Shown here in pieces: positions 2,562 through 19,907 of a stretch of DNA of 64,000 nt (the stretch's first letter is position 1; every line of letters starts with the position of its first letter). Origin of the DNA: a virus. Lineage: Duplodnaviria; Heunggongvirae; Uroviricota; Caudoviricetes. The position numbers and the translations under genes are program-made. The notes below the pieces were generated by a model. It was not told the DNA's origin, did no database searches, and saw only the letters and a program-made list of their open reading frames with translations. The stretch lies in the IMG/VR virus record IMGVR_UViG_3300043427_004512. One strand, written 5' to 3'.

Positions 2562-2903
2562 TTAATTTTCATCTTTAATACAATTATCTTCAAAATAATA
2601 AACTAAAATTTCACCGAAAAGATTTCTACATACCCTTCTTAAGTAATCCGTAATTTCACTATAGTCATCAATTTCTTCCATTTTAGGACCAACTTCGGTA
2701 TAAAAATAATCAATGGCATCATCTATTACAGCATCAGCATAATCATAACCATCATTGTGTTCATCACAATAGGGTGGATTATTTTTTCGTGATAGTGAGA
2801 CGAACTTTTCTAATGTGTTTTTATTAGCCCTCCTTATAATGGATAATGGAATCTTGGATTCTATTATTACATTATATTGTCTCTCATTTAAAAGGTATTT
2901 CAT
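2562..2903 (-). CDS. leader-B protein; cargo domain paralogous to 17895..18371
   Basis: ATG at 2903 gives MKYLLNERQYNVIIES; the track start at 2909 is TTG; cargo IRRANKNTLEKF..YDYADAVIDDAIDYF matches IRRRANRETLKAY..YEYAVAVIDYAIDKL. Confidence 0.6.
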   Translation of the reverse strand: MKYLLNERQYNVIIESKIPLSIIRRANKNTLEKFVSLSRKNNPPYCDEHNDGYDYADAVIDDAIDYFYTEVGPKMEEIDDYSEITDYLRRVCRNLFGEILVYYFEDNCIKDEN

Positions 2904-2942
2904 TATCAATAAATACTTTCACTCATTTGTTTATATGAAATT

Positions 2943-2968
2943 AAAAACCCCTCAATATGCGAGGGGTT
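2943..2968 (-). terminator. rho-independent terminator (CCCCTC-aatatgc-GAGGGG plus T-run on minus strand)
   Basis: hairpin directly downstream of the 2998..3321 gene. Confidence 0.55.
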
Positions 2969-2997
2969 CAGTATAAAGTTTCTAATTCGATGAGGGA

Positions 2998-3321
2998 TTA
3001 AGACATTACAGGGTTCTTTGCAGAACTTAAGAATTTAGATGAAACACAAGCCAATAAAGAAAAAGCCTTCATGCCAAGGTCCGCACCTTTATTCGTAATC
3101 TCTTTCATACAATCTGCCGATGATTGTGGCATTTTCCCTTGCATTAGTTCTGCTCCTGCAGCCATACATTTTCCATAATTTCTCATATCTACGCCACTAT
3201 CCTCAAAACATTTTTGTATTACATTCATAGGATTCTGAGATGGTGGTGCAGTTTGTTCTTCGAGAACCTTTCTTACTATTCTTTCTAAATCATTTTCTGT
3301 TAATCTTACTATCTTTTTCAT
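2998..3321 (-). CDS. leader-A protein (MKKIVRLTENDLERIVRKVLEEQ), Cys-containing cargo
   Basis: internal Met at 3321 restores the family-A N-terminus; upstream TATTTATAATA box. Confidence 0.55.
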   Translation of the reverse strand: MKKIVRLTENDLERIVRKVLEEQTAPPSQNPMNVIQKCFEDSGVDMRNYGKCMAAGAELMQGKMPQSSADCMKEITNKGADLGMKAFSLLACVSSKFLSSAKNPVMS

Positions 3322-3346
3322 AAATTTTTTATTATAAATATATTGT

Positions 3347-4213
3347 TTAGAATTCAAAAGCAGCATCTCCCAATCTATTCGAACCGTTTTTCTCTAAAAA
3401 CTTAGCCATATCGGTCAAATACTGATTTTTACCACGAGAAAGGTCAATCAAATCCCAATCTTTTATGAACCACCCGTCTTCTCCAAAACCAGGAATTACT
3501 GACCACGTACCTTTTTCTTTACCAGTAGTAGCGGCATTTACACCTGATGAACTATTCCAAATTATTTCTTCACCATTCGGCATTTTTACTACGATTACTT
3601 CTCTACCTAAAGGGTCATGATAGGGACCTTCAACTACTTTGACATTCTGAGGGGAAAATTTAGTGTTAGATTTCGGTAATCTACTTATAAAATTACTTTT
3701 TATTGAATTAAAAGAAGGACATGATTTTTGAGTACATCCTTTGATAGCAAATTTATTTTTAATTTGTCTCGAAAGAGCTGTAGGATTTTTCGGGATATAG
3801 CTACCATCTAATGGTTTTTTGTTTTTTAAAAAGTCATCCATTACACTTCTAAAGTCCGTTCCATCCGCAAGTTTACTCGGAAAATATTTCAATACTTCTT
3901 CTCGTCTCAATCTACCCTTAGCAACATTTAACAAAATTTCTTCAACTGTTTCCATTGGTATTGGTGCTGTTTCTAAACTTTTGGATATTAAATATGATTT
4001 CCCTTTTTGTGTTATTACGTTTGGTGATTTGAATTTTATATATAAAAAGTTGTCAAAAGACTTTACAGCATCATCCGAAAAATATTTGAATATATCATCG
4101 AATGTATTTGAGAAGAACGATTTTAAATTTTTTTGTTCTTCGAGTCTTTTAACGGAATATAATTTATCAACTATTATTTTTTTTTGTTGTTCTGATATAA
4201 TCAACTTTTTCAT
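3347..4213 (-). CDS. leader-B protein (MKKLIISEQQKKIIVDKL..), 288 aa
   Basis: family-B leader; variable cargo. Confidence 0.55.
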   Translation of the reverse strand: MKKLIISEQQKKIIVDKLYSVKRLEEQKNLKSFFSNTFDDIFKYFSDDAVKSFDNFLYIKFKSPNVITQKGKSYLISKSLETAPIPMETVEEILLNVAKGRLRREEVLKYFPSKLADGTDFRSVMDDFLKNKKPLDGSYIPKNPTALSRQIKNKFAIKGCTQKSCPSFNSIKSNFISRLPKSNTKFSPQNVKVVEGPYHDPLGREVIVVKMPNGEEIIWNSSSGVNAATTGKEKGTWSVIPGFGEDGWFIKDWDLIDLSRGKNQYLTDMAKFLEKNGSNRLGDAAFEF

Positions 4214-4217
4214 ATTA

Positions 4218-5066
4218 TTAATTTTCTTTTATACTAGCAAGTAAATCCTGTAATCCTTTAAGATTATCTGGTCTGCTTTTATATGTATCTGTTTGAAATT
4301 CTACAGGTACAGGCTTATCAGGTCTCCACCCTTTATCCCAAGCCAAATTCAAAAGTTCATTATCTTTTTTGTTTCCTGAACTACCGAAAGCGGATTTAAC
4401 AAAATCCCAATCAAATCCTTCAACAGAGGTTTTAACTTTAGGAGTACCTCCTCGAACAATGTCATAACCCTTACTATATCCTACACCTGCTGCAGTATAA
4501 ACCGCGGCATCTTTACCTAAATTCTTGGCTCCTTGGACTACTGCTTGTTTTTTTAATTGTTTTTTTGCAAGTTCTTTTCCTGCACGAATTGAAGCATCTT
4601 GTCCAAGTTTCTTCATTCCATCTTCTATGAGTTTTCTATACTGAGCAACTTTTTTAACAACCTCCTCTTCTACTTGTGACAACTTGGTCCCGAATGATAA
4701 TTTTTTCCCGATTTCTGCCAAAGCTTTGCTTCCCCAACCAGATAAACCGATTTTTACAGCCAACCCTCCCACTAAAGGAATTGCACTAAATAATCCAACT
4801 AAACCAGCAGTTTTTTTATCACCATCATCCCAGTACAATTTAGCGTCAGCTAAACCAATTCCAATAGATATTAGAGGACCAATGACTGGAACGAACGATG
4901 TACCAATTTGGTGAATAGTGAGTATTTCATGGGGCGATAAACCTGTTTGTTCAAAAGATTTTCTAATAACGTCTGGCTTTTGATAATCATACCCACCTGG
5001 TGGTGCTAACGTTATTGGTTGCTCAGAAACTATTTTATATTGTCTTTCAGAAATAATAATTTTCAT
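4218..5066 (-). CDS. leader-B protein (MKIIISERQYKIVSEQ) with glycine-zipper hydrophobic core
   Basis: leader plus GTSFVPVIGPLISIGIGLA...LVGLFSAIPLVGGLAVKIGLSGWG. Confidence 0.55.
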   Translation of the reverse strand: MKIIISERQYKIVSEQPITLAPPGGYDYQKPDVIRKSFEQTGLSPHEILTIHQIGTSFVPVIGPLISIGIGLADAKLYWDDGDKKTAGLVGLFSAIPLVGGLAVKIGLSGWGSKALAEIGKKLSFGTKLSQVEEEVVKKVAQYRKLIEDGMKKLGQDASIRAGKELAKKQLKKQAVVQGAKNLGKDAAVYTAAGVGYSKGYDIVRGGTPKVKTSVEGFDWDFVKSAFGSSGNKKDNELLNLAWDKGWRPDKPVPVEFQTDTYKSRPDNLKGLQDLLASIKEN

Positions 5067-5080
5067 AATCTATAAATACG

Positions 5081-6163
5081 TTATTTAATTAATTCAGCAA
5101 ACAAATACCAATCATATCCACCGGGTTTTGAGCTAGCAAATTCACCAGGTAGTTGTATTTTTCCACTCTTGATTAACTTATAACCTTTAGATTCTTGGGC
5201 TCTTTTAGATTCATCATTAATTGCCAAAACAACTTTTTTAATCTTTAGATTACCTAGACCTACCGTCATCCTGAAAAGGATTTCATTTCCATTTGGGATA
5301 TATTTTAGTTCAACAGAATCTATTGAGTATAATTCACCTTCAAAAATGTTTTCTTCAGACCACTTTTGTAGTTTTTTACTCAACTCATTGAAAGCATCTT
5401 TTTTCAAGTCTACGTGTACGAGAAAATTTTCACTTTCCACCGAACTATTAGGTTTTGTGTTATTAGTATTTGTTTTGTTCTCAGAATCAGTAGGAAAATA
5501 TTTTTCCATAATCTGTGAAATATCCGCACCATTCCACATTTCTGCTATAATCTTTGGTCTGTTTTTCCATGATATTTCAAATTTTTGTTTGTATTCTTTT
5601 ACTTTATCTTCAGTCGGTTGTTCACCTGGTTTCGTTGGCGGCGTTAAAGATTTGTATTGTTCAACAATTTTAGAAATATATTTATCATAATAGTCATTAA
5701 TAGTTCCATCTTTAATTTTCTGTTTTACTAAATTGTAGGCATTGTTTCTGTAATCAACATCCGAAATTATTTTACCCCTATCCAAAGAAGGGTTTATAGC
5801 TTGAGCTAATCCTGCAATCCATCTATATTCTTTACCCACAGAGGAACCCGCTTGAAACATGAAAGAGTATATCTGTATTCTAAACAAAGGGTCTATCTTA
5901 AACCATTCCTTTTCAGTCAATCCATTTGGAAAATCTTTTATATATTTTTTTATTACTCCTTCAAGTTCGTCTCCCTTATGAGGCGTAGGTGCAGGTTTCC
6001 ATGTACCTCCGACTTTTTCTGCCGTACCCATATTGTTCTCAATATCCTCAATTATTTCATACCCTTTGGAAGGTATTAAACCATCTTTATACTGTTCATT
6101 CAACAACCCGTACATTTTTAGAATTTCACTTCTATCTGATTCTGATATAATAACTTTTTTCAT
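5081..6163 (-). CDS. leader-B protein (MKKVIISESDRSEILKMYGLLNEQ)
   Basis: internal Met at 6163 gives the family-B leader; the track has an N-extension. Confidence 0.5.
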   Translation of the reverse strand: MKKVIISESDRSEILKMYGLLNEQYKDGLIPSKGYEIIEDIENNMGTAEKVGGTWKPAPTPHKGDELEGVIKKYIKDFPNGLTEKEWFKIDPLFRIQIYSFMFQAGSSVGKEYRWIAGLAQAINPSLDRGKIISDVDYRNNAYNLVKQKIKDGTINDYYDKYISKIVEQYKSLTPPTKPGEQPTEDKVKEYKQKFEISWKNRPKIIAEMWNGADISQIMEKYFPTDSENKTNTNNTKPNSSVESENFLVHVDLKKDAFNELSKKLQKWSEENIFEGELYSIDSVELKYIPNGNEILFRMTVGLGNLKIKKVVLAINDESKRAQESKGYKLIKSGKIQLPGEFASSKPGGYDWYLFAELIK

Positions 6164-6180
6164 TTCAAAAATATTTTTTT

Positions 6181-7155
6181 TTAATAGTAAAGGTAATTCC
6201 AAGTCTCTCTGCCGACAATACCATCTTTACCTTTTAATCCGCTTTTAATTTGCATTTGTTTAACTGCCTTTCGTGTTTTAGGACCATAGATTCCATCACA
6301 TGATTGTTCGTTTTCACCACAATTTCCGGGATTTGAATTATCGTCTTTTAACTCGAACTGAACTTTTTTAACCAAGTCTCCACTACTTCCATTTCCTAAT
6401 ATATGTGTACCATCTAAAATCTGTTGTTCTGTAGTTGCATATCCTTTAGCTCTTGTTGTTTGCTCGGTTTTATAATCTCCACTCAAAACCGGTTTTGTTC
6501 CGTCCCAAGTCCATTGGAGTATCCTAACATACCCTCCGTCAGCCATATCTTTTTTAGCAATCTTAACCTTCCCATCATTTAGAAAAGCTATAATGTGTTC
6601 ATTATTTTTGAGTAGTAATTTAGAATCTCCTTCTTTTTTGGTTAAACTTTCTTTCGAAAAATCAGGTGGAAATCCATTGGACTCAAGGTATTGTTTTACT
6701 TTTGTCCAATTATCAACATTTGGGCTTGCTGCGGGGGCTGCGACGGTTTTTGGAGACAACTTGAAATTTTTGTAAAGATGGTCTTCCAAAGTATACGGTA
6801 CTTTTAATTCTTTAAGTTTTTCCAAAACCTTTTTCATGTCATTTTTGTTGTTGAATCCAAAACCAATTATACTTCCGAGCTCAAATTCACCTCTAATCAT
6901 TTCATCAAACGAACCATATCCTGTTTTTTTATCCTTAAATGTATCATTTAATTTATAAAATTCTTCGGGAGTTTTAATTAATGAAAGTCCGCTGATAATA
7001 TCTTTTGGACGAGTTCCTCCCCATGATTCACCTTTAGCACCTTTTATCATGTATTGATAAGCTTTCGATATATTATCTGTTTGGGCCTGTTCAGAAATTA
7101 CTTTACTAACTAAACGAACCAACTCTGATTCAGTTAATCTTACAACTTTTTTCAT
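6181..7155 (-). CDS. leader-A protein (MKKVVRLTESELVRLVSKVISEQ) with C-terminal peptidoglycan-binding (PG_binding_1-like) domain
   Basis: leader; C-terminus KTRKAVKQMQIKSGLKGKDGIVGRETWNYL matches the PG-binding 1 motif (DGI.G..T). Confidence 0.6.
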   Translation of the reverse strand: MKKVVRLTESELVRLVSKVISEQAQTDNISKAYQYMIKGAKGESWGGTRPKDIISGLSLIKTPEEFYKLNDTFKDKKTGYGSFDEMIRGEFELGSIIGFGFNNKNDMKKVLEKLKELKVPYTLEDHLYKNFKLSPKTVAAPAASPNVDNWTKVKQYLESNGFPPDFSKESLTKKEGDSKLLLKNNEHIIAFLNDGKVKIAKKDMADGGYVRILQWTWDGTKPVLSGDYKTEQTTRAKGYATTEQQILDGTHILGNGSSGDLVKKVQFELKDDNSNPGNCGENEQSCDGIYGPKTRKAVKQMQIKSGLKGKDGIVGRETWNYLYY

Positions 7156-7221
7156 ATTAAATTATTCTCTACAATAAATACCGCATCCGACCTGATTTGG
7201 ATTAATTAAACGATAGGAAAT

Positions 7222-7245
7222 AAAAAACCCCTCACAATGGAGGGG
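7222..7245 (-). terminator. rho-independent terminator (CCCCTC-acaatg-GAGGGG)
   Basis: hairpin plus T-run on the minus strand downstream of 7270..8286. Confidence 0.55.
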
Positions 7246-7269
7246 TAATTTATTTTTTAAAAGTTTTTT

Positions 7270-8286
7270 TTAATAAAGTCTTAATCCTTCAATTCTAATT
7301 CCATTACTTCCACAATCAACTTGGTATTGACTCTTTCCGGGTCTCGTTGAAACAACACTCTTGAGGTGGTTACAAATTTCCAAATATGTATCAGAATCTA
7401 ATGGCTTTTTGTTTAAGTATGTAGCCAAATCCATTCTTCTTGCGTTATAGATTTCTTGATTTAGTTGTTCCAAGTCTGAGAAAGTTTCAAGTCTTTTGAT
7501 TCCAAAAATAATACTATCTTCATCGGGCACTGAGTAAGTATCATATTTATCTTCACCAAGTCCTATATAATCTAAAATTTTATCGATAAAATCTTTACCT
7601 CTTTTAACACTAAGTAGTTTGTTAGGTGATTGAACATCTCTACTGCTTAAAGCTACACCTCTTTGGTCCAAACCTCTTGTTTCAATCGGTCTCATAATTA
7701 TTGTTCCAAATCTCTCTTTATCATTTGGTTTTACCTTATTCGAATCATAAAAATTGAAATTGAATTTTGTTGGTTCATAATTACTTGATTGCATCGAAAT
7801 GAGTTGTTCTATTTTGTCTGTTCTAATACCCAATTCTTTGAAAACTTCCGTTATTATATCAATGAATAATTTTTTTCTCATCCTCGAAACATTTACATTT
7901 TGGTCAGGTGTACCTGTTTGAGAAGTACCAACGTTAATTTCAAAAATCTGAGGTAATTTATACTTACTATCGATAAATCTTTCAATAGTATCTTTCATAT
8001 TCTCAAGATAAGATTTGATTTTATCTTTAACCATTTTTCTTGTTTCAGGTCTCATATTAGCCTTTCCTTCATCAAATGCAAAACCTCCCTGAAGTGCTTG
8101 TCCAGTATGAACTGGTTCAGGTTCCATTTCGTTTAAAATTACAGATTCAGAAATTGGCTTAACATCTCCAAGTTTCGATTCTATTAAAGTTTTAAATTTT
8201 GACGTATCAATTTTAATTCTGTCTGTGTGTTGTTCACGGATTGCATTTTTTTCTTGCTCCGTCAAATTATTCAATATGTGTTTCAT
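7270..8286 (-). CDS. hypothetical protein, 338 aa
   Basis: long ORF flanked by terminators. Confidence 0.5.
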   Translation of the reverse strand: MKHILNNLTEQEKNAIREQHTDRIKIDTSKFKTLIESKLGDVKPISESVILNEMEPEPVHTGQALQGGFAFDEGKANMRPETRKMVKDKIKSYLENMKDTIERFIDSKYKLPQIFEINVGTSQTGTPDQNVNVSRMRKKLFIDIITEVFKELGIRTDKIEQLISMQSSNYEPTKFNFNFYDSNKVKPNDKERFGTIIMRPIETRGLDQRGVALSSRDVQSPNKLLSVKRGKDFIDKILDYIGLGEDKYDTYSVPDEDSIIFGIKRLETFSDLEQLNQEIYNARRMDLATYLNKKPLDSDTYLEICNHLKSVVSTRPGKSQYQVDCGSNGIRIEGLRLY

Positions 8287-8317
8287 AAATTTATTTTTAT
8301 ATAAATATTAAAATTAA

Positions 8318-8343
8318 ATAAAAATCCCCTCTTGTGAGAGGGG
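8318..8343 (-). terminator. rho-independent terminator (TCCCCTC-ttgtga-GAGGGGA)
   Basis: hairpin plus T-run downstream of 8356..8715. Confidence 0.55.
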
Positions 8344-8355
8344 ATTTGATATTTT

Positions 8356-8715
8356 TTAATCCATTCTTTTCATTCTGAGTTTAACAGGACCATCTTGTTG
8401 ATACCTGTCCCAATATCCTTTACCAGGACTTCTGTCTCCCTTGAAACCTTTTGCACCAAACGACCACTTGTTTTCAGGGAAATCTGTATCTGTTTGAGAA
8501 ATATATTCTTCAAAATCCTCAGGACCAAATTCAATTTCTTCATCATAATCAAATTCACCTTTTACTGGTGAGTCCATTTCATCATACCATCTATCCTTGT
8601 GTCCCAAATAGCCCTTTTTTCTCATGGGTAATTCTTTATCCAATTCTGACTCTTTAACTATTTTTCTAACCAATCTGACCAGCTCAGATTCAGTTAATCT
8701 TACAACTTTTTTCAT
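8356..8715 (-). CDS. leader-A protein (MKKVVRLTESELVRLVRKIVKES)
   Basis: first 17 aa identical to 6181..7155, with synonymous nucleotide differences. Confidence 0.6.
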   Translation of the reverse strand: MKKVVRLTESELVRLVRKIVKESELDKELPMRKKGYLGHKDRWYDEMDSPVKGEFDYDEEIEFGPEDFEEYISQTDTDFPENKWSFGAKGFKGDRSPGKGYWDRYQQDGPVKLRMKRMD

Positions 8716-8765
8716 ATTAAATTATTTTACAATAAATATATTGTCTGACCCATTTGTTTAAGATA

Positions 8766-9044
8766 TTATTCATATGAACTCAGGACATCATCAACCATAT
8801 CAAAAAAATCATCCTTTTCATCCTGACTTATATCTTCGTTAAATTCTACCATCCTTGCCAATTGTTTAACCTGTCCCAACATATCATAAAGTTCATCAGA
8901 GCCAGGTTCCAAAGATTCCATTTGACTAACAATTACTTCCAACTCCACTATATAATCTTGTAAGTTATCAAACCTTTCCTCGTTTATTAATCTATATATT
9001 ATTCCCTTCAAATCAGATTCAGTCAACCTTATAACTTTTTTCAT
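8766..9044 (-). CDS. leader-A protein (MKKVIRLTESDLKGIIYRLINEE), acidic cargo
   Basis: family-A leader. Confidence 0.55.
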   Translation of the reverse strand: MKKVIRLTESDLKGIIYRLINEERFDNLQDYIVELEVIVSQMESLEPGSDELYDMLGQVKQLARMVEFNEDISQDEKDDFFDMVDDVLSSYE

Positions 9045-9435: not shown

Positions 9436-9441
9436 ATATAA

Positions 9442-12295: not shown

Positions 12296-12347
12296 TAGGT
12301 TATTCCCCCCTATATAAAATTCTTTTGGCCATGTCAGAAAATAGTCG

Positions 12348-12355: not shown

Positions 12356-12359
12356 TAGT

Positions 12360-13207: not shown

Positions 13208-13861
13208 ACCATAAAATATACGTTGGGAACATATAAAAATAAAGATGACATTGTGTCTGTTAATATCAGGAAGGGGAATGTGGATAAAAAAATACCCCTA
13301 AAAATTTGGATTTGTCAGAATGTCAGGGGACTCGCCACGATGGGGATAATCCCTTTTCCACATTTTCCCCCACTTTCTCCCACCACTGATTCCCACTTTT
13401 TACCACCGAATTGTGTGTGTAGATAGTGTAGGGACCACTTTTTCCCCTGTGGCACTATCAGGAGGACCATATTTTTACTATATATATTTCCCAGATAAAA
13501 AAGGAATATTAAGTGTAATGTGGGGGGAGTGAGTGTAACGAACCTTTAACCCTATATAATACCCCTTCAACGAACCTGTTAGTTTGGTTTTATGACCTTC
13601 CACGAGATGGACAATCTATGTCCCCTTCGTAGCGGACATCTCATATGGTGGGTAAAAGTGGGAAGAGTATAATTTTGTCATTAGTACCACAAAGTGGTAC
13701 CTTTAACATAAAATTACTCTTAAGGGAATATAAGTGTCATACCCTAATGGGTGTAATTATTTACCGAAGGTATTGTCTTATACCCTTATGGGTGTAGACA
13801 CAATATATCACCATCTCACTGATGTCCTGTCATTATATGGGGGACAAGATATAAGGTGGGG

Positions 13862-13946
13862 ATTATAGAGTAAGGTGGTGAACGTAAGGACTTCCGAACG
13901 AAGTGAGGAATGTATTGTCCTGAAGTGAACTAACTTACTCTATAAT
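13862..13946. other. stem-loop element copy A (13-bp inverted repeat attatagagtaag / cttactctataat enclosing ccgaacgaagtgagg and gtgaact)
   Basis: perfect inverted repeat read from the sequence; a second copy with compensatory stem changes at 15511..15610. Confidence 0.5.
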
Positions 13947-13951
13947 ATACG

Positions 13952-14479
13952 TTAAAGAGAGATTGTAATTCCTCCAGTAACCATAACTATTTCACCTAAA
14001 CCCATGTTTAGAGTTACGCCGATTAGTTTACTAACTTGGGAATCAAATCCGTATCTGAAGAAAGGAAGTATCTTGTTTTGAAAAACTGGGTCGGTATTGA
14101 CCGCTTTAGCAGTAAAAGAATGTGCTAAACCGAGTCCGATATTACCTACATATCTATCGTCTCTTTTTGTTTTATAATATACGGAATATATACGCGTGAC
14201 CATACCAGCGTCGTATGTATTTGTAACTCCGTTGATATAGTCATTAATATCGTTTGTTGAGTTATTTATACGCCAAGAATACCCAAACTCGAATCCTATT
14301 CTATCGTTAAATTCAACACCGTGAGAAAGAACAGGTGCAAATTTGTTGATTATATCTGTTTTCATCGTGGTAAAAGTCCCGAAAGATGTGGTGAACTTAA
14401 TAGGTGAGAAGTCAGTGTTTTGACCATAAGAGAAAACCGATGCAATTAAGGAGATTGCAACCATAAAAAATCTTTTCAT
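13952..14479 (-). CDS. outer-membrane beta-barrel-like protein with signal peptide (MKRFFMVAISLIASVFSYGQ)
   Basis: signal peptide plus alternating aromatic/Gly strands, ends ..GGITISL. Confidence 0.45.
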   Translation of the reverse strand: MKRFFMVAISLIASVFSYGQNTDFSPIKFTTSFGTFTTMKTDIINKFAPVLSHGVEFNDRIGFEFGYSWRINNSTNDINDYINGVTNTYDAGMVTRIYSVYYKTKRDDRYVGNIGLGLAHSFTAKAVNTDPVFQNKILPFFRYGFDSQVSKLIGVTLNMGLGEIVMVTGGITISL

Positions 14480-14505
14480 ATATGTGTTTGTTTATTTATA
14501 AGATA

Positions 14506-14513
14506 CAAAGATA
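14506..14513 (-). promoter_or_regulatory. -7 box TATCTTTG (minus strand) 27 nt upstream of the 14479 start
   Basis: gtatctttgta, same core as 12283, 28707 and 29671. Confidence 0.35.
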
Positions 14514-14575
14514 CTATTTCTTTCTACTTCCCCAAATATTTTTTTCTCACTTAATTGGGAGACAACCTATAGGGT

Positions 14576-14584
14576 GGGGGGGGG
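14576..14584. repeat. G9 homopolymer tract
   Basis: gggtggggggggg upstream of the family-D gene array. Confidence 0.6.
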
Positions 14585-14588
14585 AACT

Positions 14589-14605
14589 GTCAAGTAATAC
14601 TTGAC
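14589..14605. promoter_or_regulatory. perfect 17-bp palindrome GTCAAGTAaTACTTGAC (candidate operator)
   Basis: 20 nt upstream of the ATG at 14625. Confidence 0.4.
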
Positions 14606-14624
14606 AACTGAAATATTTATTAAT

Positions 14625-15188
14625 ATGGAAGAAATTTTAAAAAAATTAATTGAAAGACTTGTATTACCGAAATATCCTATTATAAAGGATTTTGCTATTA
14701 CAGAAGTAAATAGAAAAGTTGGAATACATAATTACGAGGCAAAGAATTTTTATAGTGTTCATTATTTTGTTGTGGATGATTTGAATTATGAAAACAATAG
14801 GAAAATAAAAGAAGATATAACATCTGATACTGTAAAATTATTTAAGGCTTTAGGAATTGAAAAATATGATGTACATGAAAGTGTTATGTTTGCTAGTTAC
14901 CAAGTTAATAAAATGGTAAACTCATTAGAAAAATTAATTGGAAATGTTATGCCACCGAAATACCCTTGGATAAAGAATTTTGAGGTTTTTGGAAATGAAG
15001 ATTTCGGAGAGAATTTTTATACAATTCATTACTATGTTGATGAAAATGAATATAAGAAAAAAAACAGCAGTGAAATCAACCGCATTATATCCGAAACTAG
15101 GAATTTATACAGTAGTCTCGGACCGAGTGAAAATGATTTTTTAAAAGATATATCATTCGAGAATTATGGAGAATGGTTTAAGAATTAA
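14625..15188 (+). CDS. family-D protein 1 (MEEILKKLIERLVLPKYPIIKDF..), internal duplication
   Basis: ATG at 14625 (the track start at 14601 is TTG); the LPKYP motif occurs twice. Confidence 0.55.
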   Translation: MEEILKKLIERLVLPKYPIIKDFAITEVNRKVGIHNYEAKNFYSVHYFVVDDLNYENNRKIKEDITSDTVKLFKALGIEKYDVHESVMFASYQVNKMVNSLEKLIGNVMPPKYPWIKNFEVFGNEDFGENFYTIHYYVDENEYKKKNSSEINRIISETRNLYSSLGPSENDFLKDISFENYGEWFKN

Positions 15189-15200
15189 AAAAATATTGTG

Positions 15201-15506
15201 ATGATGAAAGATTCGTTAGATAAGTTAATTAAAAAATTAGTTCTCCCTAAGTATCCCATTATAAAGGATTACGAAATAACGGTAGATGTTTACAAACCCA
15301 CATTACCTTTAGCTGGAGGTAAGAAGAAAATTGCGTCAGAACATTATACAGTTAGTTATGATTTATCTTCTGATGAGGATGGTAATTTTACTGTCACTGA
15401 TGACCTCGGTAAAATAGATAAACTAACGGTGACTTTGTTTAAAATGCTCGGACCTGAACATTATCAGAAGTTGAACAACGTTGATTTTTATAGTTATAAG
15501 GATTAG
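15201..15506 (+). CDS. family-D protein 2 (MMKDSLDKLIKKLVLPKYPIIKDY..)
   Basis: paralog of the previous gene. Confidence 0.55.
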   Translation: MMKDSLDKLIKKLVLPKYPIIKDYEITVDVYKPTLPLAGGKKKIASEHYTVSYDLSSDEDGNFTVTDDLGKIDKLTVTLFKMLGPEHYQKLNNVDFYSYKD

Positions 15507-15510
15507 ATAA

Positions 15511-15610
15511 GATTATAGAGTAATGTGTAGTTAGAGAACGAATGGAGATGACCCCGAACGATAGTGAGGTGTATTGGTCATCGGAGTGAGTGAACTATAC
15601 TACACATTAC
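15511..15610. other. stem-loop element copy B (stem taatgtgtagt / actacacatta; core ccgaacgatagtgagg, gtgaact)
   Basis: shares a 13-nt 5' end and internal motifs with copy A, but the stem sequence is different and still complementary. Confidence 0.5.
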
Positions 15611-15630
15611 AAAATATTATATTTATTAAT

Positions 15631-15939
15631 ATGAAGGAAACACTAACGAAATTAATAAACAAAATAATAATACGTAAATACAGGGATATTGCACCCGAAC
15701 TTAGTTTTGAGGTAATGCCAGCTAGTTTGGAATATGATTCTATGGGTGTTGGAGAGAATACCTATCTTGTAAGATTTAAGTTTACTGATGAGAATGATAA
15801 ATTCCCCTCGATTGTTGAGAAACCTTTGGTTAAGGACACGATATTTGTAATGAAGTCTGTTGGATTAAAAGGTGTACGACACAAACAGAGTAATATGACT
15901 TACTTTAGAGGTTATGTGGATATAATTGGAAATAATTAA
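15631..15939 (+). CDS. family-D protein 3 (MKETLTKLINKIIIRKY..)
   Basis: ATG at 15631 preceded by aaatatttattaat, identical to the sequence upstream of 14625. Confidence 0.5.
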   Translation: MKETLTKLINKIIIRKYRDIAPELSFEVMPASLEYDSMGVGENTYLVRFKFTDENDKFPSIVEKPLVKDTIFVMKSVGLKGVRHKQSNMTYFRGYVDIIGNN

Positions 15940-15961
15940 ATTTCACGTTATTTATAGTTAT

Positions 15962-16237
15962 ATGAACGTTGTCTCATTACAGAAAATAATTAATAAGTTA
16001 GTACTCCCTAAGTATGATTGGATAGTATCCTATGAGATAGATTCTTTCTATTATCGTCCGTTTGAGAATTTTAGAGTAGTATATTATGTAGATTCCCCCG
16101 ACATAACAGATAAAGAGGATGAGGTTAAGAAAGTAGAGAAAATGACTGAGAATTTGTTTGAAGTTCTTGGACCTGTGGGTACTCAGGTATTACGAGGAGT
16201 TGTATTTGAATACGATGAGGATAGAGTGAAGAACTAA
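15962..16237 (+). CDS. family-D protein 4 (MNVVSLQKIINKLVLPKYDW..)
   Basis: paralog; internal Met start. Confidence 0.5.
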   Translation: MNVVSLQKIINKLVLPKYDWIVSYEIDSFYYRPFENFRVVYYVDSPDITDKEDEVKKVEKMTENLFEVLGPVGTQVLRGVVFEYDEDRVKN

Positions 16238-16239
16238 CT

Positions 16240-16614
16240 CTAAAATTTTGTCAAAGCATAACTCGTGACTGAAAAAGAATAAGGAGGTAATCCCAAAATC
16301 TTGGTAATATTTCTTACTTTTCTCTCGTTTGATTCGAGGTGGTCAGAGAAATCTGTATCAGTTTCATCGTATTTTAATTTGATTTGGTACATCCCCTGAA
16401 GTTCATTCCATATTACCTCGACATCGAAAACATGTGGTAAAGACATTTTGGACAACAATCTTTTAATAATGTTGTATGTTGATTCTGAATACTCGACATT
16501 CTCATATTGAGCCAATTCGTTAATATTCATCATCTGTTTAATCCTGTCTATGTTTTCCTGTAAGTTCATGTTTATAAATATATTTGTAAGATAATTATAT
16601 GGTATGAAATACAT
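16240..16614 (-). CDS. leader-C protein (MNLQENIDRIKQMMNINE..)
   Basis: internal Met restores the MNLQENI leader. Confidence 0.5.
   Translation of the reverse strand: MYFIPYNYLTNIFINMNLQENIDRIKQMMNINELAQYENVEYSESTYNIIKRLLSKMSLPHVFDVEVIWNELQGMYQIKLKYDETDTDFSDHLESNERKVRNITKILGLPPYSFSVTSYALTKF
16579..16586 (+). promoter_or_regulatory. -7 box TATATTTG 17 nt upstream of the ATG at 16604
   Basis: matches the TAnnTTTG consensus. Confidence 0.3.
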
Positions 16615-16984
16615 TATATCTGAAAGACAATATCAATTAATAAGTGAAACTTTGGACACGAGTTCTTTAGCACTTAGAAGAAGATTATCTTTAATCGAAA
16701 AATTAATCGACGAGGAATTAGCAGAGATTCATAAAGAAGGTGGTAGTGAATTCACGGACCTAATCGAATTCATGAACATTGTAATTAATATCGTTGTGGA
16801 TAAAGTTTTTACGGAAACAGGTGGAGAAGAAGAATTAGACCAAGAAGAATTAAAAGAATTTATTGAAGAGCATTATGGTGATTACATACTTTCTATGTTC
16901 CCACATGATTTGGAAGGCGATGAAGAGGATGATGAAGACTATGAAGAAGATGAAGACTATGAAGAAGAGGATGATGAATTCTAA
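16604..16984 (+). CDS. leader-B protein (MKYIISERQYQLISE) with poly-acidic C-terminal tail
   Basis: leader; DE-rich tail containing an 18-nt tandem repeat gatgaagactatgaagaa x2. Confidence 0.55.
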   Translation: MKYIISERQYQLISETLDTSSLALRRRLSLIEKLIDEELAEIHKEGGSEFTDLIEFMNIVINIVVDKVFTETGGEEELDQEELKEFIEEHYGDYILSMFPHDLEGDEEDDEDYEEDEDYEEEDDEF

Positions 16985-17034
16985 ATGAATACTTTTTAAT
17001 TGAATATAAAATAATATTAATTCTAAAATAACCA

Positions 17035-17421
17035 ATGCGTTATATTATTACACAATCTCAGTTTCATACTTTGATATACAAATATCTTGATGGTTTATTT
17101 GCTAATGAAGATTTCAGAAAAGAGATTAATCCATATGTAAAAGACGGAAACACTTATAGTATAGACATGTTCACAGATAAGGGAAAAGAATTAATGAGTT
17201 ATTTTTGGTATGGTCCTGGCGAATATGATGATGGAACAGAACATAATGGAATCGGTAATTTACATATACATCACGAATTAGTGGATTCATTAAGAAGTAA
17301 ATTAACCGTAAGAGAATCTAAGATATTGGACATTATTGCGGATTGGGTTAGTGAAAAATTTAATTCTGACGTAGATGATACGACTATATATCCGAAGAAT
17401 CCAAAGCCCACAAATTATTAA
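17035..17421 (+). CDS. leader-B-like protein (MRYIITQSQFHTLIYKYL)
   Basis: degenerate family-B N-terminus. Confidence 0.45.
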   Translation: MRYIITQSQFHTLIYKYLDGLFANEDFRKEINPYVKDGNTYSIDMFTDKGKELMSYFWYGPGEYDDGTEHNGIGNLHIHHELVDSLRSKLTVRESKILDIIADWVSEKFNSDVDDTTIYPKNPKPTNY

Positions 17422-17898
17422 TTATCCAGGTGTCATGTTGTCCAAGTAATATTCCTCTATCTCATCAGAGAAATAATCTTCAACATATTTTGTAATGTAT
17501 GGTTCGATTTTCTCTCTCATTTTTAATATTTCTTCGTAATTTAGGTCTCCTGAAGAATTAGAAATTTCTCTTATAACATTAAAAATAATTCTTGACATAT
17601 ACTCATCATAACTGTTAAAAGACCATGGTACAAGATGTTCGTAAGTATCTCTAACATATCTCGGCAAAAAATCAAATAATCTTCTTTTGATGTATAGTGG
17701 GATTTCTGATTCTGTGACTAAGTCGTTATTTGTGCCACAGTGTGGACAGATGGGTAAAGACTTCTTTCCCTTGTGTATTGTCTGTGTAAACTTCTTTTTA
17801 CAATTGAAACATTTAATCCATTTTTCTCCTGACTCTTTTTCTTCGAGAGAAACTCCCATCACTTCCTTAATCCTTGATATGTTTTCTTGTAAGTTCAT
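17422..17898 (-). CDS. leader-C protein (MNLQENISRIKEVMGVSLEE) with zinc ribbon (CFNCKKKF..CPHCG)
   Basis: internal Met gives the leader and an ATGA overlap with the upstream gene; the track N-extension is spurious. Confidence 0.55.
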   Translation of the reverse strand: MNLQENISRIKEVMGVSLEEKESGEKWIKCFNCKKKFTQTIHKGKKSLPICPHCGTNNDLVTESEIPLYIKRRLFDFLPRYVRDTYEHLVPWSFNSYDEYMSRIIFNVIREISNSSGDLNYEEILKMREKIEPYITKYVEDYFSDEIEEYYLDNMTPG

Positions 17899-18371
17899 TT
17901 CTTTTTCTTTTTTACACAGTTTGGATATTTTTTCCCGAACATTGTCTTCATCCCTTTTTGTGTATATCCTTTCCAACACCTTTCAGTTATTTCTGACTCG
18001 TTCTGTTCCTGTCTTCCTGAATCTGACATATATTCAGAACAAGTTGTTTTATATACTTCAATCAAATACTGACCAAACATAATCTCAGTCATACTTCTTA
18101 AATAATCCAAAACATCACTGATGTAATCCTGCTCAAATATGTCATCATCCACATCATCCAATAATTTATCAATCGCATAATCAATTACAGCAACAGCATA
18201 TTCATATTCATCACCAAAATCGTCACACAGAGTTGGATATTCCAATTCTGCTCTGTTTATATAAGCTTTCAGTGTCTCACGGTTAGCTCTTCTTCTAATT
18301 GAACTAGGAACAGTGGATTCATTTATACCCATCACGTCCTTAATCCTTGATATGTTTTCTTGTAAATTCAT
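17895..18371 (-). CDS. leader-C protein; cargo paralogous to 2562..2903
   Basis: MNLQENISRIKDVMGINES followed by the IRRRANRETL..YEYAVAVIDYAID domain. Confidence 0.6.
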   Translation of the reverse strand: MNLQENISRIKDVMGINESTVPSSIRRRANRETLKAYINRAELEYPTLCDDFGDEYEYAVAVIDYAIDKLLDDVDDDIFEQDYISDVLDYLRSMTEIMFGQYLIEVYKTTCSEYMSDSGRQEQNESEITERCWKGYTQKGMKTMFGKKYPNCVKKKKK

Positions 18372-18949
18372 TTCATTAACTCTAATGCATGTTCGAGACT
18401 TTTAACCCCAAATTTACGTGCTTGAACCAAACGTCTACCCTTGGATGAGTCTTTGTCCCAACATAGAATACACGGACGTTTTTTATTTAACTCATCTTCC
18501 CAATGGTTGTATTGTGTTGTATAGTCCCATATTTTTTTAGTATTTCCCCATCCTTTGGAATATAACCAACCTCCAACATTTCCTCCTGTTCTATCCATTC
18601 CGTTTCTACAATGAATTAAAGTATAACCCTTATCCAAAATTGAATTTACTTTGCTTTGGTCGTTTTCTGCGTCCAAGAGGAAGAAATTACATCCCAAAGA
18701 CTCACAAATCTTTTTTTCCTCGGCTACAGACAAACCTTTACTGTCTCCTCCATCTGCGTTAAACCTAATTATGTTTTTGATTTTGTTAACTCTAATTGTA
18801 TTTTTCAGAACCTCTGAAGGTAATTCACCTGAGCGGAAATTGTTTTTTCCTAATGGGATTTGATGTAAGTTAGTCTGAGTAATACTCGATTGTTCTTTGA
18901 TAAGACCCATGACCTCCTTGATTCTATTTAAGTTTTCAGTTAAGTTCAT
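18368..18949 (-). CDS. leader-C dual-specificity/tyrosine protein phosphatase
   Basis: MNLTENLNRIKEVMG leader; active-site loop HCRNGMDRTG (CX5R). Confidence 0.7.
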   Translation of the reverse strand: MNLTENLNRIKEVMGLIKEQSSITQTNLHQIPLGKNNFRSGELPSEVLKNTIRVNKIKNIIRFNADGGDSKGLSVAEEKKICESLGCNFFLLDAENDQSKVNSILDKGYTLIHCRNGMDRTGGNVGGWLYSKGWGNTKKIWDYTTQYNHWEDELNKKRPCILCWDKDSSKGRRLVQARKFGVKSLEHALELMK

Positions 18950-18954
18950 CTTGA

Positions 18955-19239
18955 TTATAAATTGTCAATAGATTTTATAAGTTTATGACATTTTTGGGAC
19001 ACTTTACCTTTTTCATGGTCTGTTATTGATATTTTGACTTTGTTGTATTTGATTTCAATATCAGGATGATGGTCTTGTTTTTCCGCTATTTTAGCAACTT
19101 TATTAACAAAATCTATGGATTGGTCAAAATTTTTAAATTCAAATGTTTTTTCCAACTTTTTTTCAGAGTCGCCCCATCCTTTAGATTCACTCAAAGTCAT
19201 CACTTCCTTAATCCTTTGTATGTTTTCTTTTAGGTTCAT
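18955..19239 (-). CDS. leader-C pterin-4a-carbinolamine dehydratase-like protein
   Basis: MNLKENIQRIKEVM leader; EKQDHHPDIEIKYNKVKISITDH matches the PCD/DCoH signature. Confidence 0.65.
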   Translation of the reverse strand: MNLKENIQRIKEVMTLSESKGWGDSEKKLEKTFEFKNFDQSIDFVNKVAKIAEKQDHHPDIEIKYNKVKISITDHEKGKVSQKCHKLIKSIDNL

Positions 19240-19907
19240 TACTTTTTAAGTTCTGATGATATTTTAACCGCAATGTCTGCGTCTTTTTTTAAATCTTGAA
19301 CAAGCGTATTAAAATTTTGTAAAGGCTCTTTGAAATATTTCAACTTTGGTGTTTTATTTACTTCTTGAATTAATTGAGAAAGTTTTTTTGATACTTCAGT
19401 TAAACTTTCAGCTAATTCTCCTCCTAAAAATTTGGCAAGTACTAAAAGAAATAAGTATTGAAATTTATTCTTGAATAGAAAAAATTTGGTTCTATCAACT
19501 ATCCCCAACTTTTGACCAATAATCATAATTTCCGCTGGTGTATACTTTAAAACTTGTTTTATTCCTGTTCTAACCATAATTGGTAATGAGTTTCCCGCAA
19601 TTGGAATAAAAGTTGCGCCAAGAGTTATGAAGGCGAGTGTCGCATTTTCTATTCTTTCTTCATCAGTTTTACTGAAAAAATACCTAACAATGTAAGAAAT
19701 AGTGTGGATAATATCTATACCAGCAGATACGAGATTACCAATTCCAGGTATTCCATCAATCGCAGCTGAAACAAGGTCAATTGTGTCATCAAGACCAATT
19801 GAAGGTAAATCTTCATGTTTAGTCCTTGGTTGAAATCTACTGTCAGGAATTTGTTCGTTAATTCCCATGACTTCCTTTATCCTTTGTATATTTTCTTGTA
19901 AGTTCAC
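19239..19907 (-). CDS. leader-C protein with glycine-zipper membrane segment; GTG start
   Basis: leader MNLQENIQRIKEVMGINEQ encoded from the GTG at 19905-19907; IDGIPGIGNLVSAGIDIIHT. Confidence 0.5.
   Translation of the reverse strand: MNLQENIQRIKEVMGINEQIPDSRFQPRTKHEDLPSIGLDDTIDLVSAAIDGIPGIGNLVSAGIDIIHTISYIVRYFFSKTDEERIENATLAFITLGATFIPIAGNSLPIMVRTGIKQVLKYTPAEIMIIGQKLGIVDRTKFFLFKNKFQYLFLLVLAKFLGGELAESLTEVSKKLSQLIQEVNKTPKLKYFKEPLQNFNTLVQDLKKDADIAVKISSELKK

Follow-up and report, generated by a model that had tools for sequence, protein, structure and literature searches.

Leader peptides of a few shared types, usually ending in Leu/Ile-x-Glu, are common to about two dozen genes of an uncultured giant freshwater phage

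The window, which is the whole analysed stretch of 64,000 nucleotides, comes from an uncultured giant freshwater phage in which about two dozen genes begin with leader peptides of a few shared types, 7-25 residues long and usually ending in Leu/Ile-x-Glu. The repertoire is very large, with more than 20 such genes in 64 kb. The curated set comprises 20 leaders, spanning 2091-19907 together with the distant gene 37662-38012, and falls into four families: A (six members), B (seven), C (six) and D (one). A preliminary description of this DNA recognised families A, B and C, which stand, and pooled gene 5081-6163 into B, from which it is now split off as family D. Genes named below lie on the minus strand unless the plus strand is given, and arrows mark junctions or candidate sites.

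In family A, gene 2998-3321 (107 aa) encodes the leader MKKIVRLTENDLERIVRKVLEE followed by Q, with sites LTE-9 and LEE-22; its start at 3321 is supported by the motif TATTTAT 12 nt upstream. The leader of gene 6181-7155 (324 aa), MKKVVRLTESELVRLVSKVISE, is also followed by Q, and its cargo ends in a PG_binding_1 domain (PF01471, E 2e-11). The same domain (PF01471, E 4e-9) forms the cargo of gene 37662-38012, where 10 extra residues precede the leader and the sites are LTE-18 and ITE-31↓Q. The peptidoglycan-binding cargo proposed in the preliminary description is present in two genes, both without a signal peptide. Gene 8356-8715 (119 aa) has the junction IVKE↓S, with Val at P3, and an acidic cargo which, as judged by eye, resembles part of the 512-aa ORF 53870-55408. 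The leader of gene 8766-9044 (92 aa) ends in ...RLINE↓E before a strongly acidic cargo, and that of gene 10244-10462 (72 aa, identical to P0001) ends in ...KVLNE↓Q.

Family B includes gene 2091-2549 (152 aa), with the leader MKIIISE↓SQSDSILHNMLDE↓I, and gene 2562-2903 (113 aa), with the leader MKYLLNE↓RQYNVIIE↓S and a cargo of the 'RRR/PCxY' family, here called RRR. Gene 3347-4213 (288 aa) has the sites ISE-8 and LEE-26↓Q. Gene 4218-5066 (282 aa) carries MKIIISE↓RQYKIVSE↓Q, with Val at P3, and inspection of its cargo sequence suggests Gly-zipper-like hydrophobic stretches. RRR cargo also occurs in gene 9442-9747 (101 aa), which has an early ITE-7 alone and no terminal [LI]xE, and, with an acidic tail, in the plus-strand gene 16604-16984 (126 aa; MKYIISE↓RQYQLISE↓T). 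The sole clear exception is a degenerate member on the plus strand, 17035-17421 (MRYIITQSQ...), whose residues 1-40 contain no [LI]xE. The family D gene 5081-6163 (360 aa) begins with MKKVIISE↓SDRSEILKMYGLLNE↓Q, and a D-like N-terminus, MKKEILSEIDQMKYLFGYKAGKVISE followed by Q, opens the plus-strand gene 924-1580, outside the interval of the preliminary description. The genome also encodes, 3 kb upstream, a Phage_lysozyme protein with a D leader, and a relative encodes a separate GH19 endolysin without a leader.

Family C is represented by gene 16240-16569 (109 aa; MNLQE↓NIDRIKQMMNINE↓L) and by a run of five genes further along. In gene 17422-17898 (158 aa; sites LQE-5, IKE-12 and LEE-20↓K), a weak Zn_ribbon_8 match under the Pfam cut-off is followed by RRR-family sequence. 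Gene 17895-18371 (158 aa; leader end ...GINE↓S) has an RRR cargo as well, so that this cargo family is found behind both B and C leaders, and then a C-terminal module, EITE↓RCWKGYTQKGMKTMFGKKYPNCVKK, whose start is invariably E(I/L)TE↓(R/K)CWxGY. The leader of gene 18368-18949 (193 aa) ends in ...GLIKE↓Q. Its cargo, previously called a phosphatase, does contain the HCxxGxxR motif, but it has no Pfam match and its phosphatase matches are non-significant (E 0.7); HCRNGMDRTGG is best read as a Cys-phosphatase-like P-loop motif only. Gene 18955-19239 (94 aa; ...MTLSE↓S) encodes pterin-4a-carbinolamine dehydratase (PF01329, E 2e-23), a metabolic-type enzyme among cargo that is mostly soluble, acidic or enzymatic. 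Its AlphaFold model places the leader helix (residues 3-14) apart from a fold with pLDDT above 90, and the LSE↓S site falls within the low-confidence linker (residues 14-19, pLDDT below 50). Gene 19239-19907 (222 aa, GTG start; ...GINE↓Q) has a hydrophobic, Gly-rich cargo. Neither the leader consensus sequences nor the leader regions have a match in Pfam (Pfam-A 2025), and matches to PHROGs v4 are confined to the cargo.

Leader modules also occur away from N-termini. A copy of the A module, KKTLVLSENELIDLIEKIVNEE, lies at 54497-54562 (minus strand) within the Lys/Glu-rich 512-aa ORF and is conserved in relatives, and two or three tandem A modules per ORF are found in at least 10 of the best 150 of 7,825 cluster representatives (50% identity) matched by the leader-A profile. 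The neighboring 250-aa ORF 55433-56185 (minus strand) contains two repeats of the form ...KE↓AT(G/T)SGS(S/V)GAY; its window-clade relatives (L043, L058, L081) match the 'p299' family, which in related phages is encoded next to the capsid gene.

All 15 junction strings quoted in the preliminary description are present in the translated ORFs, and its statement that leaders end in (L/I)xE is borne out: [LI]xE stands exactly at the junction in 15 of 20 leaders, or in 17 if Val is allowed (IVKE at 8715, IVSE at 5066). The terminal motif is absent from 9442-9747 and 17035-17421, and in the remaining gene, 37662-38012, ITE-31 lies one residue off the junction position entered for the test. The motif also exceeds what composition predicts: 5000 composition-preserving shuffles of residues 2-30, done protein by protein with a tolerance of +/-1 residue, gave 1.4 hits on average and never more than 7, compared with the 15 observed. 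The 20 junctions are not independent events, however, since members of a leader family are paralogues. Per residue, [LI]xE occurs at 0.079 in leaders, 0.011 in cargo parts and 0.015 in other ORFs of the window. A second, earlier [LI]xE lies within the conserved core of all leaders except one (LTE-9 in A, I(S/T)E-7 in B and D, LQE-5 in C, often plus IKE-12). Paralogues that share a residue in the family-A leader encode it with different codons in 56 of 124 codon pairs (45%), so that conservation acts at the protein level.

Because of this paralogy, the independent evidence is conservation in relatives. In metagenomic family-A proteins with distinct cargo, 64 of 65 have the junction Glu, P3 is Ile in 56, Val in 5 and Leu in 3, and similarity ends right after the junction, with none past P1'. 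In related loci totalling 3.6 Mb, the motif ends the leader in 111 of 134 family-A members, or 129 of 134 with V/M/F (83-96%), in 21 of 24 in family D (88%) and in 26 of 43 in family C, some members of which are without it. Family B, whose conserved start spans only 9 residues, has it in 42 of 109 (about 60% without) versus 26% in background N-termini; in AT-rich related phages generally, background ORF N-termini contain [LI]xE in comparable position ranges in 12-33% of cases. The leaders are essentially missing from 185,579 GTDB species genomes, where the five matches lie on MAG contigs, four of them of 1-4 kb, and the closest relatives among 50,697 GenBank phage records reach about 30-47% protein identity at best. 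Between near-identical genomes (the window versus L002, L105, L107 and L110), the leader-gene islands are hypervariable: both 3347-4213 and 4218-5066 are absent from L002, and the island at window 0-8 kb, as computed from coordinates, holds many assembly breakpoints. Hypervariability has likewise been described for T-even internal-protein genes (PMC3012670, PMC9026906).

In an abundant group of related phages, genes with A and D leaders are found downstream of a T4-like head module, at a distance of 5-12 kb; among 22 long head loci, leader genes occupy this position relative to the protease in eight and lie upstream in none. Three loci of relatives (L109, L153, L158) combine the gene of an acidic scaffold with those of a PF03420 protease and a Gp23 capsid protein of family PF07068. 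The protease (PF03420/Peptidase_S77; L109:960-1679), a type carried by more than 600 IMG/VR contigs, aligns to T4 gp21 through ELNHP and SSRG. In the capsid protein, the propeptide junction LINE↓A (...LINE↓ATS...) is invariant in 25 distinct N-termini; it stands 14 residues before the segment that aligns with T4 residue 95, where mature T4 gp23 begins. Leaders of the head-adjacent p299 family are short and variable and end in [IL]xE, for example MIQNLIKKIKQEILKE↓ATTDASGS; the AT(S)DxSGS motif behind them also stands behind LINE in the capsid protein. The N-terminal region of the scaffold (...LVKESLNE↓QDDEE) is similar to the last part of leader A. The motif TATTTAT, 3-25 nt before ATG, precedes most leader genes, the structural gene 22612-24300 and the protease and scaffold genes of L109. 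It precedes methylase and other non-structural genes as well and is therefore no proof of late timing.

For the window itself, the earlier statement that no prohead protease gene is present holds, and no capsid gene was found there either. IMG/VR scans and graph chaining yielded no contig joining window-type genes to the S77 module, and placed a protease or capsid gene on no contig of the window's own lineage. In place of the protease types S49/U9 named in the preliminary description, the appropriate type is S77, to which T4 gp21 belongs. The nearest GenBank matches of the window-clade primase, SbcD and SbcC are LR756508, which has the same order of these genes, Flavobacterium phage immuto and Microcystis phage Mel-JY01. 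The same three phages are among the top matches of the L109 capsid protein, and immuto is annotated with both an S77 protease and a capsid protein of the Gp23 type. By these gene matches, the window's own genome may also encode an S77-type protease.

The leaders may be modular targeting propeptides, a greatly expanded and sequence-unrelated analogue of the T4 capsid-targeting sequence (CTS), a reading whose chances appear about even. By analogy with T4, the leader would be a short amphipathic helix of 7-25 residues, of one of four families, fused to unrelated cargo. During head assembly it would bind the scaffolding core of a T4-type prohead, and the cargo would be enclosed. A gp21-type (S77) prohead protease would then cut after Glu in [L/I/V]-x-E at the leader/cargo junction, with second cuts probably inside the leader (LTE-9, ITE-7, LQE-5). 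Leader fragments would exit the head, and the mature cargo would remain with the DNA and enter the host at infection. The result would be a large, fast-evolving set of ejected effectors, for example cell-wall-binding or lytic, membrane-active and acidic proteins. Capsid targeting with cleavage by a prohead protease, as first proposed, is favored by the junction motif, the modularity and the S77/Gp23 module of relatives; the frequent lack of the motif in family B, the internal A module and the failure to find a protease in the phage's own lineage weigh against it. Internal and tandem A modules count against targeting since an N-terminal signal does not predict such copies. The size of the repertoire, the presence of pterin dehydratase among the cargo and the dissimilarity of the leaders to the T4 CTS in sequence were also counted against a propeptide. 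A further such point is that amphipathic helices built of Lys, Glu, Ile and Leu naturally contain [LI]xE when the genome is AT-rich.

Alternatively, the leaders could be uncleaved docking helices that gather diverse proteins at a single hub distinct from the prohead core, such as a tail or baseplate site, a phage-built compartment, a chaperone or a host machine, with the terminal φxE as a conserved helix end. This is possible but rather unlikely. The A module is indeed also an internal unit, the leader is helical in prediction, and the P3 residue is part of a conserved hydrophobic face. Docking leaves unexplained, however, why conservation in four unrelated families stops precisely at an invariant Glu, why the same φxE↓ pattern recurs at the capsid-protein and p299 propeptide junctions of relatives, and why clusters of leader genes follow closely on the head module. 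It is less probable still that the families reflect a lineage-specific expansion of paralogues, in which duplication and recombination keep the promoter, start region and first helix for expression or folding, and the motif is inherited rather than selected as a site. Hypervariable islands with a common start-proximal motif, their many breakpoints and the short conserved start of family B fit such an origin. The codon differences at identical leader residues speak against it, as does the near-invariance of the leader in many phage lineages and on cargo from thousands of clusters, with all sequence behind it diverging; such constancy requires strong selection on the peptide itself.

PG_binding_1 domains, lysozyme and Gly-rich hydrophobic proteins among the cargo could suggest export or lysis-related signals that take cell-wall- or membrane-active proteins out of the cytoplasm late in infection. 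This is very improbable: the leaders are highly charged and amphipathic, without a Sec hydrophobic core or a Tat twin-arginine motif, the cargo is mostly of other kinds, pterin dehydratase included, and the genuine signal peptides of the phage look different (13952-14479, MKRFFMVAISLIASVFSYGQ; 56189-56599). An artefact of chance and composition in Lys/Glu/Ile/Leu-rich N-termini is barely credible as a general explanation. The background frequency of [LI]xE and the modest excess in family B are compatible with it; for A, C and D it is largely refuted by the shuffle result, the near-invariant junction Glu and the frequencies in families A and D of relatives.

Compared with known systems, the leaders are closest in plan to the T4 CTS, a propeptide of 10-20 residues removed by gp21 (PMC5694885, PMC9026906). 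As in IPI/II/III (gp21, MEROPS S77), a short N-terminal propeptide-like segment ending in (L/I)xE stands on unrelated proteins, and gp21 has a homologue in related phages, whose Gp23 carries a propeptide junction of the LxE type. From one related phage to the next the cargo genes vary greatly, like those of the fast-evolving, non-essential T4 internal proteins (PMC3012670, PMC9026906, bioRxiv 10.1101/2021.01.19.427310). Unlike the T4 CTS (MKTYQEFIAE), with which the consensus sequences share the terminal φxE and nothing else, the leaders are longer (16-25 residues in A, C and D), form at least four families, have 2-3 candidate sites each and also occur as internal or tandem modules, and their cleavage and packaging are predictions. 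Dozens of leader genes per genome stand against 3-4 in T4, and A-D leaders were not found in T4 regions (about 71 kb) or in the immuto head region. T4 Alt, an ADP-ribosyltransferase that enters the host along with the DNA, is cut at ITE-6 and, C-terminally, at LTE-619 (PMC5694885, PMC9026906). Its N-terminus MELITE was confirmed in sequence, and MELITE↓LFDE resembles the family B core MK(I/Y)IITE↓SQ over only 3-4 residues; the E(I/L)TE↓ start of the C-terminal module recalls the C-terminal site of Alt, and no cargo homology to Alt was found.

The giant phages φKZ, 201φ2-1 and SPN3US pack tens of proteins, many cut after Glu by a gp21-related protease (gp175/gp245, S80), and SPN3US gp53 and gp54 are paralogues with identical N-termini (PMC5694885). 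Their propeptides differ from the window leaders in being mostly longer than 100 residues, with the motif (S/A/G)xE, and in not building extensive leader families across unrelated cargo. Encapsulin cargo-loading peptides, which usually sit at the C-terminus and stay on the protein, differ in sequence, whereas the N-terminal trafficking domains of polymorphic toxins are large folded domains. The leaders have no homology to either, and would share with both the logic of a short conserved tag or domain with exchangeable cargo, directed to a shell or a delivery machine.

Translation of the open reading frames (ORFs) in the window recovers all the junction strings quoted in the preliminary description, and the curated window set comprises 20 leader genes, in which a short shared N-terminal peptide precedes otherwise unrelated cargo. 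Four families are counted instead of the three reported earlier, as family D had been pooled with B. The consensus sequences are MKKVVRLTESELVRLVxKVIxE (A), MK(I/Y)IISE.Q.... (B), MNLQENIxRIKEVMGINE (C), and MKKxIISESxxxxILxxY..LLNE (D). The [LI]xE motif lies exactly at the leader/cargo boundary (↓ below) in 15 of the 20 genes, and two more have Val at P3, the third residue before the junction. Two B genes, 9442-9747 and 17035-17421, are without [LI]xE at the junction, and in 37662-38012 the ITE-31 site is one residue off the junction position entered for the junction test. Chance is largely excluded as the source of this pattern. Amphipathic K/E/I/L helices tend to contain [LI]xE anyway, which counts against the mechanism considered below; in the shuffle control proposed earlier (residues 2-30 of the leader proteins, composition kept, tolerance of +/-1 residue), the shuffles averaged 1.4 hits and none exceeded 7 of 20, against 15 of 20 observed. 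The motif density per residue is 0.079 in leaders, 0.011 in cargo, and 0.015 in other ORFs.

The paralogues are not independent, and the real test is therefore conservation. A leader-A profile retrieved 130 short metagenomic proteins, 65 of which, with distinct cargo, were used. Across these 65 the sequence M-K-K-(V/I)-(I/V)-R-L-T-E-S-D-L-x-R-(L/I)-(V/I)-x-(R/K)-V-I-x-E scarcely varies; 64 proteins keep the junction Glu and 64 have I, V, or L at P3, while P1', the first residue after the junction, differs between proteins (Q, E, S, N, A, D) and conservation does not extend past it. The claim that almost every member ends in [LI]xE has to be judged by family, from terminal-motif counts across 3.6 Mb of related loci: it stands for A (111/134, or 129 with V/M/F) and D (21/24), is fair for C (26/43), and is overstated for B, where only 42 of 109 relatives carry the motif, little above background. 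All window leaders but one have an additional, earlier [LI]xE inside the invariant core (LTE-9, I(S/T)E-7, or LQE-5 with IKE-12). Identical-residue codon pairs of family A use different codons in 56 of 124 cases, and the conservation of this leader acts at the protein level; a DNA-level repeat or gene conversion was rejected on the synonymous codon variation in leaders. The early core sites and the protein-level conservation are new points beyond the preliminary description. A full-text literature search with the leader strings gave no relevant match, and neither Pfam nor PHROGs has a model that spans them.

The leaders are autonomous modules. An example is the 'RRR/PCxY' cargo, found behind a B leader at 2562-2903 and a C leader at 17895-18371. 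This large paralogous family, with a (K/R)RR motif close behind the leader, a PC(D/Y)Y motif, and interchangeable B and C leaders, also includes 9442-9747, 16604-16984, 17422-17898, and 3042-3407 of metagenome contig L001. A leader-A module occurs internally at 54497-54562, inside ORF 53870-55408 (-), as well as in the metagenomic proteins P0362, P0363, P0364, P0367, and P0372. At least 10 of the top 150 representatives carry two or three leader-A copies per ORF in a leader-cargo-leader-cargo order; such ORFs may encode polyproteins or result from gene fusion. A conserved, basic, Cys-containing C-terminal module, E(I/L)TE↓(R/K)CWxGYTQKGMKTMFGKxYPNCVKK, always opens with (I/L)TE and is carried by proteins with A, B, or C leaders, some pterin dehydratases among them (the C-terminus of 17895-18371; loci L124, L097, L131, L138, L140, and L112; proteins P0265, P0288, and P0342).

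Near-identical genomes differ by entire leader-cargo genes. Six window genes, named by leader family and protein length (B288, B282, A324, A92, B101, and A72), are missing from the related locus L002, which carries B422, A262, and B436 instead, and the cargo sets of more distant relatives are entirely different. Many contigs of the clade end at window 0-8 kb, within the leader-gene island (L005, L022, L025, L035, L044, L081, and JGI contigs), and these assembly breaks fit strain-level hypervariability there. An exhaustive profile search (E <= 0.001) finds leader A in 7,825 cluster representatives at 50% identity. The 185,579 GTDB species genomes give only five matches, on MAG contigs, four of them of 1-4 kb, and a cellular origin of the leader was rejected given its absence elsewhere in these genomes.

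The window is densely coding, AT-rich (~31% GC), and phage-like, with a tRNA-Met, an HNH endonuclease, methylases, DnaJ, an SbcC-like gene, fibre-like structural genes, and a sigma-70-type factor (59653-60450). No near DNA relative exists among 50,697 GenBank phage records, and protein matches are only distant. The sigma gene matches ~80 IMG/VR contigs at 68-88% identity; nine of these are 309-326 kb long, which indicates a freshwater jumbo phage with a genome near 320 kb. Contig L001 matches window 1-2695 at 100% identity and adds 9.8 kb of genome upstream. Signal peptides of the ...SxxAQ type, together with a nearest cultured relative of the head genes that infects Flavobacterium, suggest a Bacteroidota host. 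Several further features accompany these genes. A full-length GOLLD RNA (RF02032) match at 35295-35701 (-) scores 317 bits against a gathering score of 150 (E 5e-90) and lies ~550 nt from the tRNA-Met (36258-36329, -). A ParB_N-domain protein (PF02195; 22054-22587, -) with the C-leader-like N-terminus MKLDETIKRILEIMELPTEEE is encoded between two fibre-like structural genes, and a four-gene sugar-nucleotide cluster (24725-26556, -; PfkB kinase, cytidylyltransferase, cupin, HAD hydrolase) directly adjoins the structural genes. The HNH endonuclease gene (10518-10964, -) lies within the leader-gene island. The 12-14 kb stretch has a G+C of 0.38 against about 0.31, few convincing ORFs, and no Rfam match. 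A second small-protein family outside leader families A-D, with N-termini ...L(I/V)xK(L/I)VLPKYPIIKD(F/Y)..., occurs in tandem copies at 14601-16237 (+), 16240-16569 (-), and 26852-27136 (+).

The heptamer TATTTAT, often within GTATTTATTGTA, is concentrated before genes: 52% of its 62 window copies lie 3-25 nt before an ORF start (e.g., at 7180, 8738, 9066, 10483, 24311, and 55429 on the minus strand), whereas for the other heptamers made up of five T and two A the share is about 10%. Most leader genes have it upstream, as do the structural gene 22612-24300 and the protease and scaffold genes of the related phage L109. TATTTAT also stands ahead of non-structural genes and is therefore no proof of late timing. 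Its spacing to the start, sometimes only 4-5 nt, suggests very short or absent 5′ leaders. T4-style TATAAATA late promoters were rejected, as only 3 of 22 TATAAATA copies lie ahead of an ORF.

The cargo is partly consistent with an injected-protein role. The peptidoglycan-binding cargo described earlier is present as two PG_binding_1 proteins, both without a signal peptide; for the proposed phosphatase, the HCxxGxxR motif is there, but the enzymatic identity could not be confirmed. Further cargo includes Gly-rich hydrophobic proteins and very acidic small proteins, and a D-leader lysozyme is encoded 3 kb upstream of the window; a relative has a leaderless GH19 endolysin. PHROGs and PDB sequence searches of the cargo were mostly empty. 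In an AlphaFold2 model of the pterin dehydratase 18955-19239, built from a 33-sequence alignment, the enzyme fold is confident (pLDDT above 90) and begins near residue 22, the leader is predicted as a separate helix (residues 3-14, pLDDT about 56), and LSE↓S falls in segment 14-19, with pLDDT below 50.

Homologues of T4 gp21 and gp23 occur on three of the 78 IMG/VR loci fetched by the leader-A profile (L109, L153, and L158). In L109 the protease (960-1679) is followed by an acidic scaffold (2092-3693), the capsid protein (3711-5564), and several leader genes (D-type at 7415 and 8430, A-type at 10001 and 13394). The protease and >8,000 relatives belong to PF03420 (Peptidase_S77), and it is alignable to T4 gp21 through ELNHP and SSRG; the capsid protein belongs to PF07068 (Gp23). 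Among 25 distinct capsid N-termini, LINE is invariant in ...ENQAS(F/H/Y)LINE↓(A/S)T(S/A/G)(D/E)xSxG(S/A)FETVVFPI, 14 residues ahead of the segment aligned with T4 gp23 residue 95; the candidate junction of the relatives is LINE↓(A/S), and T4 gp23 itself is cut at FLTE-65↓A. The p299 family, encoded directly after the capsid gene, has short, variable leaders (MIQNLIKKIKQEILKE↓ATTDASGSRGSF; MNIKDIVNKIIKE↓ASSESGSRGSY; MKNNKIHINE↓STSDGGGRGSY), and every example shows [IL]xE and then the same motif as after the capsid LINE. The scaffold N-terminal region ...EIKELVKESL(K/N/S)E↓QDDEE resembles the leader-A tail. This likeness has a parallel in T4, where gp22 starts MLKEQLIAE↓A and the capsid-targeting sequence (CTS) is MKTYQEFIAE (bioRxiv 10.1101/2021.01.19.427310). 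Across 22 long head loci, every leader gene that could be recognised is downstream of the protease, at a distance of 5-12 kb, with no example on the upstream side.

In agreement with the preliminary description, the window has no prohead protease gene: tblastn with T4 gp20-24 and the L109 protease and capsid found no match in the window or any window-clade locus. The S77 protease is abundant and conserved in IMG/VR, with at least 600 matches for each of two protease variants, and no window-clade contig was among the best 80 loci. Linking 242 loci through their orthologues did not connect the window to the head regions, and the two fell into separate components. A single step of walking upstream from the window led to lysis and signalling genes (an endolysin, holin-like genes, and a two-component system) and to no head genes. 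In the relative L290, positions 14137-19918 correspond to ~13-19 kb upstream of the window start and encode a leaderless endolysin of GH19 type that carries a PG-binding domain, membrane proteins resembling holins, a response regulator, and a phage-encoded 474-aa PAS histidine kinase. We infer from sequence comparison that the head module and the window clade are connected by lineage. The window-clade primase, SbcD, and SbcC have their best GenBank matches in LR756508 (same gene order), Flavobacterium phage immuto, and Microcystis phage Mel-JY01, and the L109 capsid protein has these three among its top matches as well. The immuto annotation includes a terminase, gp20 portal, S77 protease, and Gp23 capsid protein, with ...ENQAKQIVSE↓ANVTG in the capsid propeptide region. 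For the window structural protein 22612-24300, the closest match is a virion protein from cyanophage S-PM2, which is T4-like, and relatives of p299 are found in the window clade (L043, L058, and L081). The window and the L109 head genes further share TATTTAT ahead of their starts. The 250-aa ORF 55433-56185 (-) contains two KE↓AT(G/T)SGS(S/V)GAY repeats like those in L058. The capsid post-junction motif of the relatives, E↓AT(S/G)(D/S)xS(S)G(A/S)(Y/F), occurs twice inside this ORF and also at the p299 N-terminus (L058 9804-10925; L109 9105-10004); it may be either a cleavage context or a structural motif.

In T4, gp21 removes the CTS, a propeptide of 10-20 residues that attaches to the scaffolding core and is common to unrelated, non-essential, fast-diversifying internal proteins ejected into the host (PMC3012670, PMC5694885, PMC9026906). 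The leaders would act likewise, the propeptide binding the scaffolding core before a protease removes it. Refined by four families, several candidate sites per leader, and I/L/V at P3, this earlier reading is the best-supported mechanism, and we give about even chances to the leaders being cleavable capsid-targeting propeptides. The leader/junction observation is confirmed; the capsid-targeting interpretation is upheld in part, by the head modules of related phages, and not by a protease link in the window lineage. Family B is often without the terminal motif, the A module can be internal or tandem, and the repertoire is very large, all of which count against cleavage and loading. One rival, an uncleaved helix docking to another hub, would keep the leader in place and is to be set against the near-invariant junction Glu; another takes the leaders as inherited N-termini of a paralogue expansion, against which stand the cargo-distinct proteins that share leader A. 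An export signal is largely excluded, the leaders being without a hydrophobic core.

A broader proposal, which we advance tentatively and consider somewhat improbable, extends the capsid-targeting reading to T4-related freshwater jumbo phages: an 'address code' of at least four interchangeable, protease-removable leaders would load dozens of effectors per virion for injection, with thousands of cargo families environment-wide, and tandem leader-cargo ORFs would be polyproteins resolved by the head protease inside the capsid. If leaders load capsids, phages would inject a much larger and more modular arsenal of proteins than the handful of internal proteins in T4 implies. This arsenal would be readable from sequence, a 20-residue tag flagging thousands of candidate host-takeover or anti-defence effectors in metagenomes; leader A by itself matches 7,825 clusters. 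The hypervariability and assembly breaks of leader-gene islands would be explained, and the tags would be transferable sequences that direct foreign proteins into large capsids, a use to which the T4 CTS is already put. Uncleaved docking helices would still represent a very large, uncurated, virus-specific protein module.

Whether this is a CTS-like propeptide system, a variant of the T4 kind, seems to us evenly balanced. The leaders have no sequence similarity to the T4 CTS. In its minimal form, MK(I/Y)IITE↓, the B leader is similar to the propeptide of T4 Alt, MELITE↓ (PMC5694885), and the C-terminal module of the window and its relatives, opening E(I/L)TE↓(R/K)CWxGY, recalls the C-terminal LTE-619 cut of Alt.
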